The notes under the pieces are model-generated. The model was not told the DNA's origin, did not search any database, and worked only from the letters and a program-made list of their open reading frames with translations. From Paecilomyces variotii (lineage: Eukaryota), in the NCBI GenBank assembly GCA_004022145.1, contig RCNU01000001.1: 64,000 bases of DNA, one strand, 5' to 3'. Shown in pieces: positions 2,172-59,921 of this stretch. Each line of letters opens with the position of its first letter. Position 1 is the first letter of the stretch. The position numbers were made by a program, and so were the translations under genes.

Positions 2172-3716
2172 TTATTCATTTATTTTCGGATGGGCGATTG
2201 GTGCGCCTTCAACGCTGCCCCGACGGCCCCAGTTCATCGGCTGTCTTCGAAGGAACGCTCCTACAGCGCCCAGGTAGCCCTCATGCCGCAAGAAGTATGC
2301 TTGTTTTTCGCCCTTCGACCAGAATCTTATCGCATATGACAAGGTATTCATCGTCTGGGGATGGCCCCGGATGAATGATCCGCCGAAGTATATGTGCTTG
2401 ACTTCGTGCTTCTCTGACTGGAGGTACGAGATCTGACCAATGTTGTTACTGGGAATCGTCAGTCACATGGAACGTCCAAGAAAGCGGAGAGAATAGAAGA
2501 CATACCTTATGGCGTAAAGTAGGCTGCGACTCATGTCCTCGTGGCTGAATTTGGCACCACGATCATTTCCTGGGTCAGCGTCACTTTGGATGAGGCCCTC
2601 CCCATCCTCAGCTTCACGCTCGGCTGCTCTCTTCATTCTGAAGACCTTTCCGAATGTGCTAGCGATCGCGGTGCTCTTCAGTCCGATCTTGTTGTAATCC
2701 ATCCCGTATATGTCTCCAACAAGCATATCAACACCGCTGTTGTCCCCTCGGTCTGCCATCGCTAACATCTCATCAAATGACCTCGCACCTGTCAACAAAG
2801 ACATAATGCCCCAGAATGTACCTCCACCCAGATGCGTTCCACCGACACGTTGGAATTGCCTTGGGCCAGACACCTTGATCATTGATACTCCGGACCCGAT
2901 ATTTACCAGAAGGTATGGATAAACGTCCGGTCGCGCTTCCGCAAATTTCATAGGGTGTGTTTCGCTGTAGGTGAAGACCTCATTGGGAATTTCAGTGATG
3001 AAGAAGTCAAGACCTATACATTAGTCAGTACGTGTACCATGCGCCTTTCGAAACCGACATACCGGTAATAAGGCATTCCATTTCATCTTCCCGAAGAACG
3101 TTGACGTTCAATACCTCTCTCAACTTATCGTAATATTTGTATGCCCCTCCACCTGTAGCGACAACGCACAATTCCTCGGATCCATCGAGCTTCTCATGTT
3201 CCTCTTTGAGCTGCTTGATAAAATCAATGCAGAGGTCTATCCGAGCGGTTTCGAAATTGATAAAATTCAAGCGACCGCCATTGTCAGCAGAGTCCAGCTC
3301 CCGTGTGAAATAGACCAATTTAGCGAGCGATCCTCCAATCTGTAATCCCAAGGCGCATTGTCAGCATAGTTCCTGTAGTTTCTTGCAGTTCACATGGAGA
3401 AATGTGCTGATTGCGGGGAGAATCCGTTGTGCGGGGAACAGAGAAAACTTACATCCACCGCAACATGGCTCACCAGGCCCGTATGATGCGGTAGCCTGAT
3501 GTCTTTATTTTCGTAGTGAACGCCCTCACTTTCGATGGGGCTCTTGGAGGAGGAATCCTCATCGAGGATGAAGGCCCCCTCGACGTTGATCTTGACGCTT
3601 CCCGGATTTGAAATTGCGTCCTCGAGACGGCCGACGCGATCATCGTGCGACATGTCGGTCGCGTGCCTCAGTCCCGCAGGGTCGAGATCGGCGGAATTGC
3701 GGTTCGAGACTGACAT
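2172..3716 (-). CDS. CAB1: Pantothenate kinase, eukaryotic type II (fumble family), multi-exon
   Basis: Motifs [97 protein letters not shown] across ORFs 3390-3911, 3025-3351, 2463-2951 and a last exon ending at stop 2172-2174. Start at ATG 3716 is inferred. Confidence 0.95.
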
Positions 3717-17196: not shown

Positions 17197-18489
17197 ATGA
17201 CCTCCAATCCTCAGCAGGTGGAGGAAAAGTCTCCCGCTGAGATGGAGTCGGCCTACTTCAGCAAGTATCCGCCACCCAAGTCTCTCCAGAAGCACGAAGC
17301 TCTTGCGCGAGCTTTCATTGAGTATCATGTCGAATCGAATCGACGAGTGGTGCTTGTGACCTCTGGTGGAACGACAGTTCCCTTGGAGACGCAAACGGTC
17401 CGCTTTATTGTAAGCTATTAATTGATCATGATGACTTGCAAGAAGATTTCTACAGCAACTTACAGATATGAGCAGGACAACTTCAGTGCCGGTACTCGAG
17501 GAGCAACCTCAGCAGAGTACTTCCTGGAAGCAGGCTACGCAGTGATCTTCTTTCACCGGCAGTTCAGTCTCCTGCCATATTCGAGGCATTACAGTCACTC
17601 AACGAACTGTTTTCTCGATTTCATGGAAGAGGCGACGCCTTCAACTACCAGTGGGGACAACAACAATGGTCCCATTGTCGTGCGCAGCGAGTATCAGGAT
17701 GAGATGCGCGATGTTCTGCGCAAGTATCGTTATGCGAAACAGAACAACCGCCTGCTTCTCCTGCCTTTCACCACTGTGACAGACTACCTGTTTGAGCTGC
17801 GTTCTCTGGCAATACTGATGCGGCCACTGGGCCCAAATGCCCTTTTCTATCTCGCTGCAGCCGTCAGCGATTTCTTCATCCCGCGCGACCGGATGGCAGA
17901 ACACAAGATTCAATCATCTGAGGTGCCCGTTATTTCTGAAGATCAGATCTACACCGGCGAGAACGAGTCCCAGCCATCCAGGAACGGAAAGAAGCTCGTC
18001 ATTGATCTTGACCCGGTCCCGAAGTTCCTCCACCGCCTTGTCGACGGCTGGGCACCTGATGGAAGCATGATCGTCTCATTTAAGCTGGAGACAGACCCGA
18101 GTCTGCTCGTGAACAAAGCACGAACTGCGCTGCAGCGATACTCGCACCACCTTGTTATCGGTAACCTTCTCTCCACCAGGAAGTGGGAAGTGGTCTTCGT
18201 CACTCCTGACGAACCTCGAGAACGATGGATTCGCGTTCCGAAGTCGAAGAGGAGTAAGAGTATCTCTGGTGTTGAGAACCAGGTCGGATTGGCAGAGGGA
18301 AAGGAACCCAATGCAGCTACGGAAGAGCCACCGGTGCAAACTGAGGGGACGGGAGCGGATGCGGATCAGAGAGAAGGGGGAACAGCCCCTGGTGACCACC
18401 AGATGGAAATCGAGAGCCTGATCATCCCTGAATTGGTCAGGATGCACTCTGAAATGATAAAGAAGAAGGCTAAGTCCGGAACAGCATAG
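17197..18489 (+). CDS. CAB2: Phosphopantothenate-cysteine ligase (PPCS)
   Basis: VVLVTSGGTTVPLE..TVRFI|DNFSAGTRGATSAEYFL, YLAAAVSDFF, EHKIQS, VSFKLETD, VIGNLL. Intron 17410-17475. Confidence 0.95.
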
Positions 18490-43690: not shown

Positions 43691-45669
43691 ATGGCTGCTC
43701 GAATTGAAGGTTCAATTGAAGACCGCGCTGTTGGTGTTCTAGGTATGTACTGTACATACATACATCTTGGACAATCTCTCTATCACCGTTTGTATTCTAC
43801 GATTACTAACTGTATCGTTCAGGTGGTGGTCAATATGGCCGATTGCTCAGCGAAGCCGCGAGTCGACTGTCTATACCCGTTCTGGCCCTTGATCCCTCCC
43901 CAGCAGCTCCCACCAAGCAGATCAGCGCCGCATCTCTCCTCAACTCGTCTCTTACACATGTTGATGGCTCTTACACCAATCCAAACGACATTCATTCTCT
44001 AGCTGAGCGAGTCGATGTCCTCACAGTCGAGATCGAGCATGTGGACGTACAGGCACTCTTCCAGATCCGTGACAAATATTCCACCACTGGCGGTAACTTA
44101 GGAAAAGGCATCGAGATATTCCCGTCTCCAGAAACGATCGCAATTGTTCAAGATAAGTTGCTTCAGAAGCAGCTCTTGAGGAAAGCAGATATTCCAGTTG
44201 CTGATTTCATCGACCTTCCGGATCCAACCGTTGAGAGCGTTTCCCAAGCAGCCAAGACACTTGGCTTGCCACTGCTACTCAAATCTCGCAGGCAAGCTTA
44301 TGACGGTCGAGGGAACTTCTTGATCCGTGATCTTGACGACGTTCAGCTTGGCTTGGACAAACTCAAGGCTCCGCTCTTTGCTGAACGTTACGCGACGAAT
44401 GTTACCCATGAGGTCGTCGTGGTCCTCGTGCGTAATGCTAAAGGCGAAATTCGAAGCTATGGAGCAGTTGAGAATGTTCATGCTGGAAAGATTGGCCATC
44501 TTGTTCGCGCTCCTCTGAGACAGGGAGGAAAAGACGTAGCCATTCGCGCACAATCGATAGCAGAGAAAGTTATCAGTTCACTGCCTGATGGTGCCGTCGG
44601 CGTATTTGGTGTAGAGTTCTTCCTGTTAGATGACGGCAGGTGAACATACGACCCCTGATCATATTAATACTAACATTGGAATGAGCAGGAGCATTATTTG
44701 TCCATGAGATCGCCTCTCGTCCACACAGCTCTGCTCACTATACCGTCGAAGCCTGCGAGACATCGCAATACGAGAACCACCTCCGTGCCATTCTTTCACT
44801 TCCACTTGGCAGTACGGAATTGAAGGCTCTCTCGGCCGCAACGTTAAACCTGCGCAGCACGCCTGAGACCGCTGAAGAAGTTCGTTCCGTCGTCCGCAGG
44901 CTCTTGAGACTCCTGGGGCCACTTTGCACCTATACGGGAAGAAGGAGGCACCAGGAAAAGCCGATTCTCCCAAGGGACGTAAGATCGGCCATATTACTGT
45001 GGTTGGCCCCTCCGATGCGGACGTTAATGATCGCATCCATAAGATCATAGGATCCTTCAACAATGACCCTCTTGTTCCAAAGCCGCTCAAGTCTCATCCG
45101 CTGCCGCTCGTGTCGGTGCTAATGGGCTCCGACTCTGATCTGCCTAGTATCCGCGATGCAGCTCGCATCCTAGATCAGTTCAAGGTGCCATTCGAGACTC
45201 GTATCGTCTCTGCCCATCGTACCCCAACGCTCATGAACGACTTTTGCAAGGAGGCTGCTTCTCGCGGCGTCCGCGTCATTATCGCTGGTGCTGGAGGCGC
45301 TGCCCATCTCCCAGGAATGATAGCATCTGAATCGAACCTGCCCATTATCGGTGTTCCCGTCAAGGGCCCCACGCTTGACGGTGTCGATTCTCTTCATTCT
45401 ATTGTTCAAATGCCGGTAAGTATTATATCATCCCCACGCGGCGAAATTTGGATGGAAGCTGATGTTTGGTCTAGAGAGGAGTTCCAGTCGCTACTGTTGG
45501 AATTAATAATTCCACCAATGCAGCCTTGCTTGCGATCCGCATTCTCGCTATCACTGATCCAAAATATGCCATTGCGATAGAGGAGTACAGAGCGAATATG
45601 GAGCAAGTGGTGCTGCAGAAGGGAGAAAGACTGAATGAGCTTGGCTGGACATTGGATGGTGGGAAATAG
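43691..45669 (+). CDS. ADE2: Divergent ADE2-like PurK-PurE fusion (N5-CAIR synthetase/mutase) with an apparent 1-nt frameshift; possibly a pseudogene or sequencing error
   Basis: [107 protein letters not shown]. Introns 43743-43822, 44636-44688 (GC-AG) and 45416-45474. Frame jump at about 44897. Confidence 0.88.
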
Positions 45670-46061: not shown

Positions 46062-47607
46062 TTAATTCTTGAACCCATTCACCCCCTCCTTTATCTGCCA
46101 CACGGGCTCATAATACCAGCGCGGCACAGGACGCTCGCTGCGCTCAATAATGTCTTCGAAGTTCTGGTTGACGAGCAGCTTGCCATTTCGGAACACTGGA
46201 CGGAGTAGATTCTCCTCTCCTTCCTTGAGATCCTCCTTTCGGACAGTAGTGTATTCGCCATCGCGGATCACCAGTGCTTGTCTGCCGCGTTTCGAGGTCT
46301 TCGCAGAATCAGACTTTGGCTGCTTATAGATATCTCTCCATTCGCCGTCTATTTGGACTGCGTTCGCCTTCTGAGTGAAGGCAAGCGTGTCACGGTTGAT
46401 GTACTGGAGCAGACCGCCGCCCATGCCCAAGTAAATATTGTCGGCGGATAGGCCGCGACGATCAAGCTCGGCGTAAATTCGCTTCAGAGAGGGAATGGTA
46501 AGGCCATCACCCTGTGCAGCTCGAATGTAGTCTGGAAGGACTTTGTAGCCTTTCGAGTTGGTCGTCGACCCGAACTTCTCAACAAGACCCTCAATCGTCT
46601 CGGAAATCACTGTTGGTGGATCCCCGGAGTCAGGTCGCACTAGGATAACGCTGCCTGGTCACGCGAAGTTGATCAGTAATTTGCAAGAATATCTAACTAG
46701 TAACTATGGCGCGAGGCCTCGTTATTTGTTGCTTACCACTGTTGATGACCTCATCCTTGAGTTTGGTGCCGAATATCTCCTTGACGGCATTCTCCAAGTC
46801 GTACGAGTCAGATACAGCCACAACGAATGGCCAACCCTTGTACTGTTTTATCAAGTTCGCGTGGGCGTCAACCTCGTGGTCCTTTCCCCATGCCGTTACC
46901 GTCGAGTGTTCCGAGTTAGGTTGGGAAATAGCAGGGTTGAGAGCGTTGTAATAGAGAGTAGCCGCGAGAGATCCGGAGATGGTGTTCGTCTGTCGGAAGT
47001 TGACGAGATGCGCCAGTCCCCCCAGAGCTGCAGACTCTTGGGAACTCACTCCACGAGCACCATAGTCTTGCAAGACGTCTCGAAGGATTTCCGGGTGATC
47101 CGAGGTCTTCTCCAGTGCTTCGCGGATGAGCTGCTTTGCAAGCCAACTCGTCGTTCCAACAGAAGTAGAGTACCAGACAGATCGAAGTAGAGCCGTTTCA
47201 ATGAAGCTCGTCACCCAGGGATACTTCGGATCTGTATTGACGATCTGAACGAGGACGTTCTTGATGGGTAAGACCGTCCCCTCGGGAACTGCTTCAATCT
47301 CCACAGGGAGATAGCCGTTGTGCTCATTGACGATCCCAAGCCAACCTTCCCTGTTGAATGGAATTTGATGCTGACGCGTGACAATCTCTGCCTCGTCGAT
47401 ATCATCAATCGTGATCGGGCGGAGCAAGTGCTTTTTGATAAAGGCTTGTAGACCAACGAATAGATGGGCCGGATATTCGCCTCCGCGCGACTCTATGTAA
47501 CTGGAGACATGCGTTGTGTTCGGAGGATAGAGATTCCAGTGCGAATGTTTGTAGGTGTCCGTATTCAGGATGATATTATCGAAGTTGGAGAGTAGTCTGG
47601 GAGACAT
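46062..47607 (-). CDS. Nicotinamide phosphoribosyltransferase (NAMPT/NadV)-like protein, bacterial type, 487 aa
   Basis: TDTYKHSH, YIESRGG, GLQ, FNREGW, EAVPEG, NTDP, ETALLRSVWY, DYGARGVSS, AHLVNF, EHST, SDSYD, RPDSGD, QGDG, GMGGGLLQ..NRDT, SKRGR. Intron 46655-46736 (GTAAGC...TACTGAT...CAG) restores the frame (NSG|SVILVRPDSG). Confidence 0.92.
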
Positions 47608-51836: not shown

Positions 51837-53000
51837 TCATTCATATCTGCGATCATTGTAACCACCAATCAGCTCGACAGAACCGTCCTCTCTCTTCTTC
51901 TTTTCATAGATGTCGGGATTCAACTGAACAGTCTGCTTCGCCTTAACCCACTCAGCCATAGTAACTGGCTTATCGAAACGTGGCTTCACACCCGCTTTCT
52001 GAAGGACTGGCGAGTCATTGATGGGATACAGGACGGTATCACTGTGAGGTCGCGCGAAATATAGCAAACCTGTCCGATCATATTGCCATTGGTCCTTGGG
52101 AGGAGCCACCACACGATGAATGGAGCTCTTCAGATAGCCACCAGTCAAATGCGAAAGTGTGTCAGCCAGATTAACCGTAATAGTTCCGGGCTGCGCTGAC
52201 ACGTATGTCCATTTCCCATCTTCTCCCAGGATCTGCAATCCAGCAACGGGTTGGCGGAATAGAAGCGTCAGGGAGCCCAAATCGGTGTGGCCGCCGGACT
52301 GTCCGTATCCGCTAGCCTCATGCTCCTCCGGAGTACGTTTGTTATAGATCATATAACGGAAATGATCCTCGCTTCTCTTCTCGTATGTATGTTGCTTAAC
52401 GAGGTATTCCTCATCTGGAAGCTGTAGCACGATAGCGAATAGTCGCAGCAGAGGCAGAATGACATTCGAGTGCAGGGCCTTTGCGAATATCTCTATCTCC
52501 GGCAGGTGGGCTTTAATCAGGTCGGGATGATTGTACTTCCCCTCAAAGTCCTTTGTGAACTTGGCGAAGTTGTACATTTCGGTGTTGTCTTTGACCTTTC
52601 CCACGTTTCTCAGACCAGCGCGCCGATAGCCATTATAATCCGCATTGGCATAGTCGACTTGATATTTCAGCTTCTCCTCAACAGGCAGTGCGAAAAAGTT
52701 GCGCGCCAGTGTGAATTGGCGATCGACTTGTTCCTGTGGGAGACCAAAGTTCTTGACGTAGAAGAACCCGACATGATGCACAGCGTGCTCCAGCTGCTTG
52801 GCTAGTCTCTCCTTGCCACCAAGGCGATCGAACTCCTTGAGATCAAGGGTAACTAGTTCCGCCCATGGCAGGTCCTCCTTTGTTTCTGGGGGATGGACAT
52901 AAGGCTTCAGGTGGCTGAAATCATACTGCTCGGGGTTTTTGACAGAATCAGCACCACTTAGAGTGGGCAGTTGCGCCGTTTCAGTGAGAGTAGCTGACAT
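51837..53000 (-). CDS. 2-oxoglutarate/Fe(II) oxygenase, IPNS/DIOX_N family
   Basis: VGFFYVKNFG, FFALPVEEK, HTDLGSLTLLF (HxD), GLQI, VNLAD, SSIHRV (distal His), RTGLLYF. Intronless. Confidence 0.93.
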   Translation of the reverse strand: MSATLTETAQLPTLSGADSVKNPEQYDFSHLKPYVHPPETKEDLPWAELVTLDLKEFDRLGGKERLAKQLEHAVHHVGFFYVKNFGLPQEQVDRQFTLARNFFALPVEEKLKYQVDYANADYNGYRRAGLRNVGKVKDNTEMYNFAKFTKDFEGKYNHPDLIKAHLPEIEIFAKALHSNVILPLLRLFAIVLQLPDEEYLVKQHTYEKRSEDHFRYMIYNKRTPEEHEASGYGQSGGHTDLGSLTLLFRQPVAGLQILGEDGKWTYVSAQPGTITVNLADTLSHLTGGYLKSSIHRVVAPPKDQWQYDRTGLLYFARPHSDTVLYPINDSPVLQKAGVKPRFDKPVTMAEWVKAKQTVQLNPDIYEKKKREDGSVELIGGYNDRRYE

Positions 53001-53955
53001 ATTGTGTTCGCGGATAGAGCTTGAGTTCTATACGAGTAGATGTGCTGGAGTTTATTCCCAATATATCCTAAACAGCTCTCTTGGTATCAAGAGACCTTTA
53101 TATAGGGAGTACCTCGTATTAACCTTGACCAGGTATGTAACCCGAGGTTTAAGCGATGAGCTGATATCTCTTCACGAGTCTTCATATCCCCTGTTCATAC
53201 TTTCGGAGTCTTTCCGCTGCTGTATCCTCATAGGGGGGATATTTATAACCAAATGACACCATCGTAACGACTGTGATGCAATCTGGATGATAACAATGAT
53301 TGGACAAGCAAGGGATCTGGGCTCTCTCCGCGCCAGATGTTTGAAACATGAGGGTCAGCCAAGAATCGAGATATTAGATAGCTGATTGATCACCTGGGCC
53401 GTTATCATCGATGCATAGTGCATAATCACAGGGAGAGTGAGAGAGCCTATGACATGGAAATAGTTTCCCGACGTCTGTTTCTCTGTTGGGACGAGAATGC
53501 ATAGCGGTATACTGCCAGCGACTGATGCATATCTTAATCCATGGAATCCAATTAAAGCAACGGACTCATTTTGTTTGCTACCCCGCACTTATAGAACGCT
53601 ACATGAATCACAATCTCACTCGTCGAGCCACAGAAAGAGGTATACGAGTAAGATCAAGAGGACCTATTTAATGTAAGTTTTGCCGCAATCCATCTACAGA
53701 ATAATAGTCTGCAATATTATTCTTCTCATATCTCCATCAAATGCGGGGTATAGATATCTAGACTCGAACTCGTCGGAATCCCTGTCAGATCTATATTCCT
53801 GTTGACGGCATCACGCCATATCATGCCGGATTGCGAAGTACAGCGCACCATCCGATCGCATTTCGTTATCGAGCGCTTAGATTCCGAATATCGATAGTTC
53901 TGTGGACCATTTATCGAGCCTAAGATCTGTTTTACCGATAGATCGCTAGTACAGT

Positions 53956-56984: not shown

Positions 56985-58770
56985 TTACTCTCGAGAAGGA
57001 AACAATCGCCAGGCTCTGAGAGGAAGGCTCTGCAGCTTGAGGGCTGCAGGTTTGATGAATGACCAGAAAGTCACGGCACCAATAATCACACATAGAATGT
57101 TGGTGATATAATATCCATCCCGAGCAACATGACACGAACCACCTCCGTCAAGACAGCGGTGCTTGTCTGCTTCAAGAACGCAGGAAAAGGGCGTCGTAAC
57201 AAGCGGACCCTTCAACTTGTCCGGTGAGGGCGCAGTACTCGGAGGAATACAAGTAGCGCTCGTGAGCGTGTCAACAAGCTTGAGAATGAAGAACTTGGGG
57301 AATGTGCCACCAAGGTTTGAGACGCTAAAAACAGTTAGCTTAGGACTCTTCAAATTGTGTCAGTCTGGTAACTTACGTTGCTAATAGTGTCATATAGGTT
57401 CCTCCAATGATAGGATCGGCGATGCGCGCGTGGAACGCAGAGATCGCCACGAACATGACGGTATTCATAAAAGTGGACAAGACATGCTCGCCAACAACCG
57501 TCAGCAGGTACCAGAATGGAACATCAGGACCAGCCGGGTAGATCAAGACAGTCAACTGCGCGACAACTGCGGCAATGAGTCGCCCCACAAATGCCCAGCA
57601 CCAGAGTCTCATGGGAGTGTACTCAGTCGACCATTTTCCAGCATAGTATCCCAGACCAATCTCGAAAGGGAAATCAATCAGGACCACTAGTGCCATGTTG
57701 TCCTGGCCGAAACCCTTCTCGAGCAACTTCAGACTAGTCACTGCATCATTCGCCTGGAAGCCAATTTTGGCAATCAGATGGATGATGATAATACTCTGAA
57801 TGTTCTTGAGCTTGAGGACACTCCACATGCTCTTGTAGACCTCGACGATCCCGTCGCGATCCTTGGTCTTATCTTCCTTCTTCATGATGGCCAGACCAAC
57901 TGTCACAATCAAGTATGCCCATCCCCAGAAAGTAAGATAAGAACCAAGGGACAGCAGGCCCGTATCTTGCGGTTCAGCCCGGAACCATCTGTTTGCAAAA
58001 TCCTTCGAATTGAAGGCCAAGAAGACGGTATATGACAGGAAATGGCCCGCTGTAAGACCAACAGTCTGGGCCGTCGAGGCATAAGAAATGTTCGGTGGGG
58101 AGAGCAGGGTAATCGCCCAGCCGTCCACAGCGATATCCTGAGTCGCACAGAGGAAGACCAGAAAGAACCACCACCATGTGAAATTCCAGACCCCAGCTCC
58201 GCCATTTGCTCCTGCAGCTGCCATCATACCCTCAATATGTCGTCCTAGGTAGATCATCGCCAGTCCAGAGACAGTCTGAATGGGTGTAATCCAGCTCTTC
58301 CTCCTGCCGAACTTCGGGCTCCAGACCGCATCCACGATCGGACTCCAAAGGAGCTTGAGGGAATACGGGTACGATGCTAATGAGAAGACACCGATCTGCC
58401 CGTAGGACAGATACGGCTTCAGCAGGAACGGCACAGATCCCGAAGCCAGACCCATTGGCACACCCTGCAAGAAGTAGAGCAGACATAATAGCAAGAAATT
58501 CCTCCTATCCTGCTCTGGAAGTGAAAAAAGACTGGTATTCGTCATACCAGGCGTCTGGGGTGTTCGTGGCGGTTCATCATCGAGACTAAAATCGGGTCTC
58601 GACATCAACCGCTCTCTCTGCGTTTCGGACGAAGGTGGTTCAACGGAGCCCTTTCTCCGCAACTCGATATGGGAGTCCATGCTGCCGTTCGCCTGGCCGT
58701 TGTGGCCCGTCGCGACCGTCAGCCTCGGTGAGGAGCGAGTTTTGGTTTGGTTGCGCGTCTTGGCCTTCAT
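56985..58770 (-). CDS. Acetyl-CoA transporter (SLC33A1/ACATN1 family, MFS); N-terminus may extend to about 59127
   Basis: LYFLQGVPMGL, SYPYSLKLLWSPIVDA, GRRKSWI, ATQDIAVDGWA, YASTAQTVG, DPIIGGTYMTLLAT|VSNLGG, DGYY. Intron at about 57325-57376. First in-frame ATG at 58770. Confidence 0.92.
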
Positions 58771-59921
58771 CTGTATCCGATTGGGATCTGAAGACTCGTC
58801 GAGGAGCGCTTCTTCGACGTCGTCGGTGCTGTCGAGATCGTCCTCGTCGTCGGAGATTGAGAAACGAGAAGGATCAATGAGTTCGGTGTCTCCTCCTTCC
58901 GCGCTATCTCTGTCGCGGTCTTGTCCACCACTGCCCTTGCTTCCTAGCGTATCAAGTTCCACTGCTTCCTGATCAATACATTCCTCGCGAGTGCCGTGAC
59001 GATTGTCGTGCTGTGCAGTGGGAGCACGGAGGGGTTCAGAAGCCACGGTGGTTGCGAGAAGATGTAGAGGGGGAATATTATTCAGTGCGAATAGAAGGCA
59101 TCCATATGGTAGATTTCCTTTTTGCACAAGTTGGCCTCAAACGGGGAATAACGGGACCCCAAGGCTTGGAAATTGGAATAGTTAATGGGGGCTAAGGCTT
59201 AACGGCGAGGAATTACTGGACGGTCTCTGGAGACAAATACTGTAAGCATCAACCTAGCCACGATTGACTAAGGAGGCGAAACACGAACCCACAAGATATT
59301 TATAAACTTGTCAGCTTGCTGAACGCCGTAGATATCCTCATGGAGGTCTCCTGGTCAACAGCTGGATAATGTTCTGAAGTTTGCAGTTCTCCAGAATCTC
59401 CGCGTAACTATCCGGCGCGTGCGCAGTTGATCTCGCGTCAGATCAGGCAAGGTGGCCATTTCGTGCTTAGTAATCTGCGTTCTAGAGCATCTGCGAGACA
59501 GACAGACAGACAGATCAGATCAGATCGAAAACAATCATATAACACGCTTGAGAACAGTCAGATTCTTTATCGCATACATAAGACCATTCCTTATAGCCGT
59601 CGCAGCGACTTGATTACAAAGGATTCGGAGTGTTCTACATCAGCTAGGTTATCTAACATCAACTGTTGGCGCCGATGTGATGATGCGTCGTCAATCTCCC
59701 TAACACTATGGCGCTGGTATGCTTCTTTTTTATAGTTTCCTGATATTTTTCTATGGACTTATAACGTGTATGCAAATGTTTCAGAATCAACGAATCAACC
59801 TATCCAGGTTATGCTTTGGACGTAACGCCAACACTGCCACCAAAGACGAACGCTCATATTGCTAGATTCTCCTATCGAATCTGCCAGTCCTCTCCTTCGG
59901 CAGTTCACTAAACCGTCAAGC

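Follow-up and report, generated by a model that had tools for sequence, protein, structure and literature searches.

The window analyzed here, a stretch of 64,000 nt of Paecilomyces variotii DNA, carries a gene for a transferase with the NAMPT fold, which raises the question of whether this protein serves NAD salvage in an ascomycete or acts on another base. The spliced protein (Table 1) matches the Pfam domains NAMPT_N and NAPRTase, reaches 551 bits against the NCBIfam family PRK09198 (cut-off 405) and has the same sequence as one database protein that bears the label Paecilomyces variotii, and unspliced read-through leads to a stop codon. The intron contains a branch-like CTGAT 22 nt from its 3' end. 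Splicing of exactly 82 nt is observed in the contig of one run (X1, which the tool guesses to be RNA) and is absent in the other three of the four runs mapped. X2 and X3 are RNA libraries, yet their contigs are unspliced and of genomic type and are therefore uninformative on expression. The 487-aa frame, the domain and family matches and the spliced contig bear out the preliminary description of a NAMPT-fold gene with an 82-nt GT-AG intron.

Table 1. Positions of the features within the 64,000-nt window.
Feature	Position	Strand	Details
NAMPT-fold transferase gene	46062..47607	-	spliced frame of 487 aa without internal stop
Transferase exon 1	46737..47607 (871 nt)	-	residues 1-290; includes D17, Y19, Y182, R185, N208, Q229, N231, H234
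Transferase intron	46655..46736 (82 nt)	-	GT-AG (GTAAGC...CCAG), phase 1, splits the Gly codon of INSG-SVILVRPDSG
Transferase exon 2	46062..46654	-	to residue 487 and stop; includes R297, D340, Y365, G369, Y375, R378
ADE2b (second, divergent PurK-PurE, AIR carboxylase)	43691..45669	+	convergent with the transferase; ~595 aa in intact strains
ADE2b introns	~43743-43822; ~44636-44688 (possibly GC-AG); 45416-45474	+	only 45416-45474 seen spliced
ADE2b frameshift of one base, C-terminal part of PurK	44880..44900 (near 44898)	+	X1 and X15 as in the window; one extra base in X2 and X3
Open frame of 320 codons	49147-50109	+	1.5 kb upstream of the transferase
2OG-Fe(II) dioxygenase	51840-53027	-	past CENP-O
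CoA-related genes	2466-3020; 17422-18489; 57373-59136		pantothenate kinase domain; weak DFP C-terminal match; acetyl-CoA transporter

The transferase gene is flanked by fungal genes (CENP-O, a fungal rhodopsin domain and Zn2Cys6), and the GC3 of the transferase is 0.60, compared with 0.48-0.59 in seven neighboring exons and 0.73-0.97 in three bacterial relatives. Bacterial contamination, which had been rejected earlier, is ruled out by the intron, its splicing, the fungal flanks and the GC3. No Pfam match to a Starship or other mobile element is present among the 33 window ORFs scanned, and a scan of the intergenic gap for bacterial promoters gives results at chance level.

Named fungal copies are known from six species in five genera (P. 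variotii, P. lecythidis, Rasamsonia emersonii, Capronia epimyces, Exophiala dermatitidis and Hypoxylon sp. NC1633), as obtained from the best 120 of 8000 scored candidates in a search with exon 1 and from cluster look-ups, with names attached to only about one quarter of the database proteins. The full-length identity is 84-91% among the fungal genera, 80-83% to Mycolicibacterium hassiacum, Mycobacterium saskatchewanense, Gordonia paraffinivorans and the Rhodococcus IEGM 1241 cluster, and 50% to the canonical NadV of Aggregatibacter. A quick tree of 85 rows, which were hand-picked from 240 unique sequences and supplemented by 22 representatives and two tandem-protein halves, separates a subfamily of 48 rows from the canonical NAMPTs by a long branch with an SH-aLRT of 100 and places the fungi as the sister of the actinobacterial members. 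In a more careful tree of 28 rows, the fungi form one clade (100/100) nested among actinobacterial members, with enclosing nodes at 92/95 and 88/76; the fungal clade falls within a clade characterized by Asn at position 208, which is itself recovered at 100/100.

The subfamily is mainly actinobacterial, forms a long branch and is distinct from ordinary bacterial and phage NadV; its horizontal transfer from Actinobacteria into fungi is well supported by the identities and the trees. The horizontal acquisition, the intron gain and the patchy fungal distribution proposed in the preliminary description are supported by these results, and the expected nesting within bacterial NadV holds for the bacterial part but not for ordinary NadV. 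The other fungal copies use the same intron position: the metagenome contig L032 contains a 64-nt intron at the same codon as the 82-nt intron, and 22 of 27 short relatives end after the same Gly that bears the intron, which points to a single fungal acquisition, in our reading from an actinobacterial accessory operon, followed by a single intron gain. In bacteria, too, the subfamily is patchy: NAMPT-like matches were obtained for 10 of the 401 genomes of one family, for 7 of the 301 of a second family and for 3 of the 92 of a genus. A vertically inherited eukaryotic NAMPT is rejected, as two eukaryote-like NAMPT halves, of inferred eukaryotic origin, fall among the canonical NAMPTs, at a large distance from the fungal copies. 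Transport of NAMPT by viruses and plasmids is mentioned in the accessible portion of PMC4217691. A phage or NARP origin is rejected because the best identities are just 50-51%, and no close phage relative is found among 2014 phage records (best match 50%).

To what extent the active site resembles that of NAMPT can be judged from the alignment to the Xanthomonas enzyme, for which the residue roles are those given in the accessible portion of PMC10907753. The predicted model of the near-identical P0001 superimposes on the Xanthomonas (7YQO/7YQQ) and human NAMPT structures with a TM score of approximately 0.84 at 42-45% identity; this AlphaFold model is a P0001 monomer with low confidence at residues 183-188 and 203-208 and is therefore unusable for reading the pocket. 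The catalytic and ribose-phosphate residues D12, Y14, R180, H229, D335 and R373 of Xanthomonas are kept as D17, Y19, R185, H234, D340 and R378, and R297 and G369 are likewise kept, so that the transferase shares with NAMPT/NadV the fold, the ribose-phosphate residues, the phospho-accepting His (H234) and the stacking Tyr (Y19). In contrast, the Asp that binds the amide of nicotinamide (D203 in Xcc, D219 in human) is Asn208, the stacking F177 is replaced by Tyr182, which is still aromatic, and the tunnel is altered at several positions (I224 to Q229, A259 to V263, V291 to L295, I332 to A337, and A360 to Y365). Among the 146 of 149 NAMPT representatives that cover the region, 144 have Asp and none has Asn at position 208, and all 146 have Phe at position 182, where Tyr does not occur. 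The mutation D203N lowers NAMPT activity according to the same portion of PMC10907753, in which D219N of the human enzyme is cited for the same effect. The rest of the subfamily (118 rows) has Asp or Glu at position 208, and in a sister clade the same three partner genes accompany a transferase that retains Asp208, which indicates that Asn208 does not define the pathway.

Additionally, a switch of substrate on the NAMPT scaffold is described in the part of PMC12774641 available to us, together with the adenine clamp of Namat, which is formed by F392 and Y396. The transferase has the same fold as the phage proteins NARP1 Namat and NARP2 Nampt, and its Tyr375 maps to Namat Tyr396; however, Gly371 is found at the position of Namat Phe392, which leaves one of the two clamp aromatics, as mapped from the RD motif. 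No Pfam match to an adps/PRS-like gene is present among the window ORFs scanned, and the bacterial neighbor of the transferase in locus L008 is, by sequence, a full-length PRPP synthetase.

The neighboring gene in the window, ADE2b, was absent from the preliminary description, as was the altered base pocket. The resident ADE2 lies on contig C2, and ADE2b is a second copy with 46% identity to it and up to 56% identity to basidiomycete sequences; in a tree that contains one ascomycete ADE2 only and carries a long-branch warning, it groups with Sporobolomyces/Rhodosporidiobolus and with unnamed sequences. Like fungal ADE2, the protein has PurK and PurE domains and retains YDGRG, R299, H301 and the GRK motif. 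In its PurE domain, which has the catalytic motifs and passes the TIGR01162 cut-off, 79 of 84 conserved positions are unaltered (5 changed), whereas the PurK domain retains its main ATP and AIR sites, is changed at 17 of 126 conserved positions and scores 301 against TIGR01161, just below the cut-off of 318. Four of the PurK changes (N294H, P298S, N302S and G304A) flank R299/H301, and the NE-APRPHNSG motif is altered. A GC donor in the second intron of ADE2b is required to hold the frame of the 595-aa database model.

ADE2b and the transferase occur together. A homologue search of 7994 candidates among proteins of 483-2000 aa finds close homologues of ADE2b (71-76% identity over PurK, after which values fall to at most 50%) only in Paecilomyces, Hypoxylon NC1633, C. 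epimyces and E. dermatitidis, all of which are transferase-bearing fungi; ADE2b is not found in Rasamsonia emersonii in the same 7994 candidates. The accessions of the two proteins are consecutive in five of the six named species, and the pairing comprises five named fungal species and the metagenome contig L032, in which the two genes are adjacent but divergent instead of convergent. The linkage therefore outlasts rearrangement, and it spans three fungal orders. The transferase and ADE2b trees both place Hypoxylon with Paecilomyces (AU p = 0.053 and 0.169 for the transferase, 0.311 for ADE2b), and subsequent spread from fungus to fungus is suggested, although not proven, by this agreement. 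The titles and beginnings of abstracts that were searched, with few subscription journals covered, describe neither the subfamily nor its transfer into fungi nor its pairing with ADE2. A fusion of the transferase to ADE2b is rejected, as the top match of 1000 aa is a tandem canonical NAMPT instead. The proteins P0295, P0296, P0298, P0299 and P0420 comprise single chains of tandem canonical NAMPT units and one riboflavin kinase-NAMPT fusion.

The bacterial relatives have a different set of partners. In the closest clades, the transferase gene is accompanied by OMPDC-like, CinA/PncC-like and HAD genes, to which some loci add PRPP synthetase or LOG. In G. paraffinivorans, M. hassiacum and Rhodococcus IEGM 1241, the accession of the OMPDC-like protein directly follows that of the transferase, and in L006 and L007-L012 the OMPDC-like gene also lies beside the transferase gene. 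The encoded protein has the motif DHQKAGxD, scores far under the pyrF cut-offs and lacks the Ser and Gln that we take to be the pyrimidine-contacting residues of OMP decarboxylase; a separate pyrF above the cut-off is present in one of the five genomes checked. The 56 homologues of the OMPDC-like protein include no named fungal protein, and no match is found in the plasmids or, as a weak negative, in the P. variotii genome. The CinA of the operon is an extra paralogue in all four genomes that carry it, and in this paralogue ETVTGG replaces ESCTGG and the YxNxxK block is also departed from; AESCTGG and YxNxxK are the blocks given for CinA/PncC proteins in the available portion of PMC3855486. 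A CinA/PncC-like gene of P. variotii lies elsewhere on the contig of the window (G000:C1:3053602-3054784, L149).

A HAD gene is found within 7 kb at 18 of 19 subfamily loci and at none of 33 canonical loci, and PncC-like and PRPP synthetase genes are found at 7 and 10 of the 19 subfamily loci, respectively. The subfamily partner proteins find no match at any of the 33 canonical loci when used as queries, a comparison that is biased toward the subfamily loci from which these queries were drawn. The canonical control is made up of the 33 loci, out of 94, with at least 4 kb on each side; the remaining 61 were too short or had no strong match and were left out. Genus searches yield no new bacterial locus of the Asn208 clade, and the linkage to CinA and HAD in that clade therefore comprises L006 and a deleted remnant in L005. 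In the latter, which is a MAG from Gordonia, the beginning of the OMPDC-like gene is fused to the end of the HAD gene (L005:6491-7054), as would result from a deletion of the operon middle or a misassembly, and an ammonium transporter gene lies upstream.

In light of the pocket and the gene context, the protein may be described as having NAMPT-like chemistry, but it departs from canonical NAMPT in both the amide-binding Asp and the neighboring genes, and its physiological substrate is probably not nicotinamide. The substrates of class I PurE are AIR, N5-CAIR and CAIR. Because ADE2b is the fungal partner and the bacterial partners include an amidohydrolase and a decarboxylase, an aminoimidazole-type base is ranked first among the candidates. 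We tentatively propose that the transferase is a type II phosphoribosyltransferase for such a base and meets the purine pathway at AIR/CAIR together with ADE2b, an assignment that is plausible but far from secure. The enzyme would couple 5-aminoimidazole, 5-aminoimidazole 4-carboxylate or AICA to ribose-5-phosphate, and the ribotide product would enter the purine pathway at the AIR/CAIR step, with ADE2b as the partner, either to salvage the ring or to degrade it. In bacteria, the ribotide amide would be converted into the acid and then into the decarboxylated ribotide by the PncC-like amidohydrolase and the OMP-decarboxylase-like enzyme, with the HAD phosphatase in addition. The conversion of AICAR into CAIR and then AIR requires exactly an amidohydrolase step and a decarboxylase step, and it therefore fits the bacterial partners; the fungal pair contains no amidohydrolase. 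Several points weigh against the aminoimidazole reading: AICAR could join the purine pathway without ADE2b, and with 5-aminoimidazole as the base, the amidohydrolase and the decarboxylase of the bacteria would be left without a role. CAIR is the sole shared node. The Asp208 of the sister clade, the lack of a match to the OMPDC-like protein in the P. variotii genome and the failure to find ADE2b in Rasamsonia emersonii also count against this reading.

A further point against an aminoimidazole is that the gene clusters of the distant subfamily members look like pyridine catabolism, as judged from their gene content, and not like imidazole metabolism. These members (60-63% identity) are encoded on plasmids of Rhodococcus pyridinivorans (NZ_CP113799.1, L112) and Arthrobacter crystallopoietes (NZ_CP018865.1, L113), together with an LLM monooxygenase, an aldehyde dehydrogenase, an amidohydrolase, a tautomerase, a HAD protein, a ribokinase and a PRPP synthetase, in clusters that presumably serve pyridine-type catabolism (pyr genes); the related cluster L126 also encodes a nucleoside hydrolase. 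The transferase may instead phosphoribosylate another N-heteroaromatic compound (a pyridine, a pyrazine or a non-amino azole) for activation or detoxification, with ADE2b as a processor of the analogue or a resistant copy that shields purine synthesis. This reading, which we rank second and consider somewhat less likely, is favored by the presence of the subfamily in these ring-cleavage clusters and by the concentration of changes in PurK, as opposed to PurE, of ADE2b. However, the closest operons (L005-L010 and L012) contain no ring-cleavage gene beside the core, and the PurE domain is of the canonical class I, whose chemistry requires an exocyclic amino group. Additionally, the pyridine role of the plasmid clusters is derived from strain names and from the literature on the Arthrobacter pyridine pathway. 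The plasmid-borne transferases differ from the fungal enzyme in having Asp208 and Gly229, and neither a monooxygenase nor a ring-cleavage enzyme accompanies the two fungal genes. Clusters L112, L113 and L126 suggest activation of pyridine by phosphoribosylation before ring cleavage and may be a stronger lead in their own right.

NAD salvage by an ordinary or nicotinate-shifted NAMPT, with an incidental linkage to ADE2b, is less likely still. The protein has the NAMPT fold and passes the NCBIfam cut-off for the family, and the combination of PRPP synthetase, NAMPT and PncC, two partners of which recur at the bacterial loci, is a known NAD-salvage arrangement. Furthermore, the Asp-to-Asn exchange is stated to reduce NAMPT activity and is not said to abolish it in the accessible portion of PMC10907753. 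However, a NadM-type NMN adenylyltransferase domain is encoded nearby at 25 of 33 canonical loci and at none of the 21 subfamily loci, and NAD salvage leaves the OMPDC-like, HAD and LOG partners, as well as the persistence of the ADE2b linkage, unexplained. The P. variotii genome already contains an Npt1-like gene and a Pnc1-like gene, the latter with a motif that we take to identify it as Pnc1. With Asn in place of the amide Asp, no NMN adenylyltransferase in the neighborhood, a Pnc1/Npt1-like route present and a best phage match of 50%, the previously suggested one-step bypass from nicotinamide to NMN against NAD-depleting effectors is not supported, and the fallback of a new activity that accompanied it is the better-supported reading.

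The state of the genes varies among strains. In addition to the ADE2b frameshift (Table 1), the transferase has a 2-nt deletion at 47082, codon 176, in X2 and X3, and the window allele has Ser147 at a position where Pro is invariant in a 32-row alignment of relatives, with Ser in 2 of 12 full-length cluster members. Most alleles in the database are intact, but the module is broken in some strains and looks to be dispensable. It is highly improbable that the pair is a decaying passenger that came in as a unit of two genes, no longer has a role in this lineage and is being lost, as these lesions might suggest, since the identity of 84-91% across fungal genera, the intact alleles and the spliced transcript in X1 instead indicate prolonged purifying selection that has recently been relaxed in some strains.

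Returning to the proposal of an aminoimidazole-type base, the fungal pair can be placed in a broader and rather more speculative scheme. In an undescribed branch of the NAMPT fold, ribose-5-phosphate may serve to activate N-heteroaromatic bases as a handle that can be taken off again, which would allow deamidation, decarboxylation or cleavage of the ring; its removal and recycling would be the task of the phosphatase, nucleoside hydrolase, ribokinase and PRPP synthetase. In the related trigonelline pathway, an LLM monooxygenase cleaves a quaternary pyridinium, which fits the logic of a ribose handle. The ascomycete module would be a chimera of a bacterial transferase and a basidiomycete-type ADE2 that replaces the bacterial decarboxylase, passed between fungal classes and providing a new entry into the purine pathway. 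If this is true, many annotated nicotinamide or nicotinate phosphoribosyltransferases are not NAD enzymes; the transferase, HAD protein, nucleoside hydrolase, ribokinase and PRPP synthetase of heterocycle-degrading bacteria constitute a ribose-carrier cycle; and the fungal genes are a clear case of a bacterial enzyme that switched its pathway partner after transfer to fungi. The fungal pair offers a two-protein test of the substrate, in which ADE2b points to AIR/CAIR.

Several minor observations concern the subfamily and the window. Loci L114, L115, L136 and L137 form a further subclade with other pocket residues, including Glu208 in three of the four, and in L114 and L115 the subfamily gene has PNPOx-like, cupin and F420 biosynthesis genes as its neighbors. 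In the window, the open frame upstream of the transferase has no Pfam or NCBIfam match and no usable Atlas match. The dioxygenase is probably unrelated to the pair, as no such frame is evident beside the pair in L032, and the presence of the CoA-related genes is probably a coincidence.
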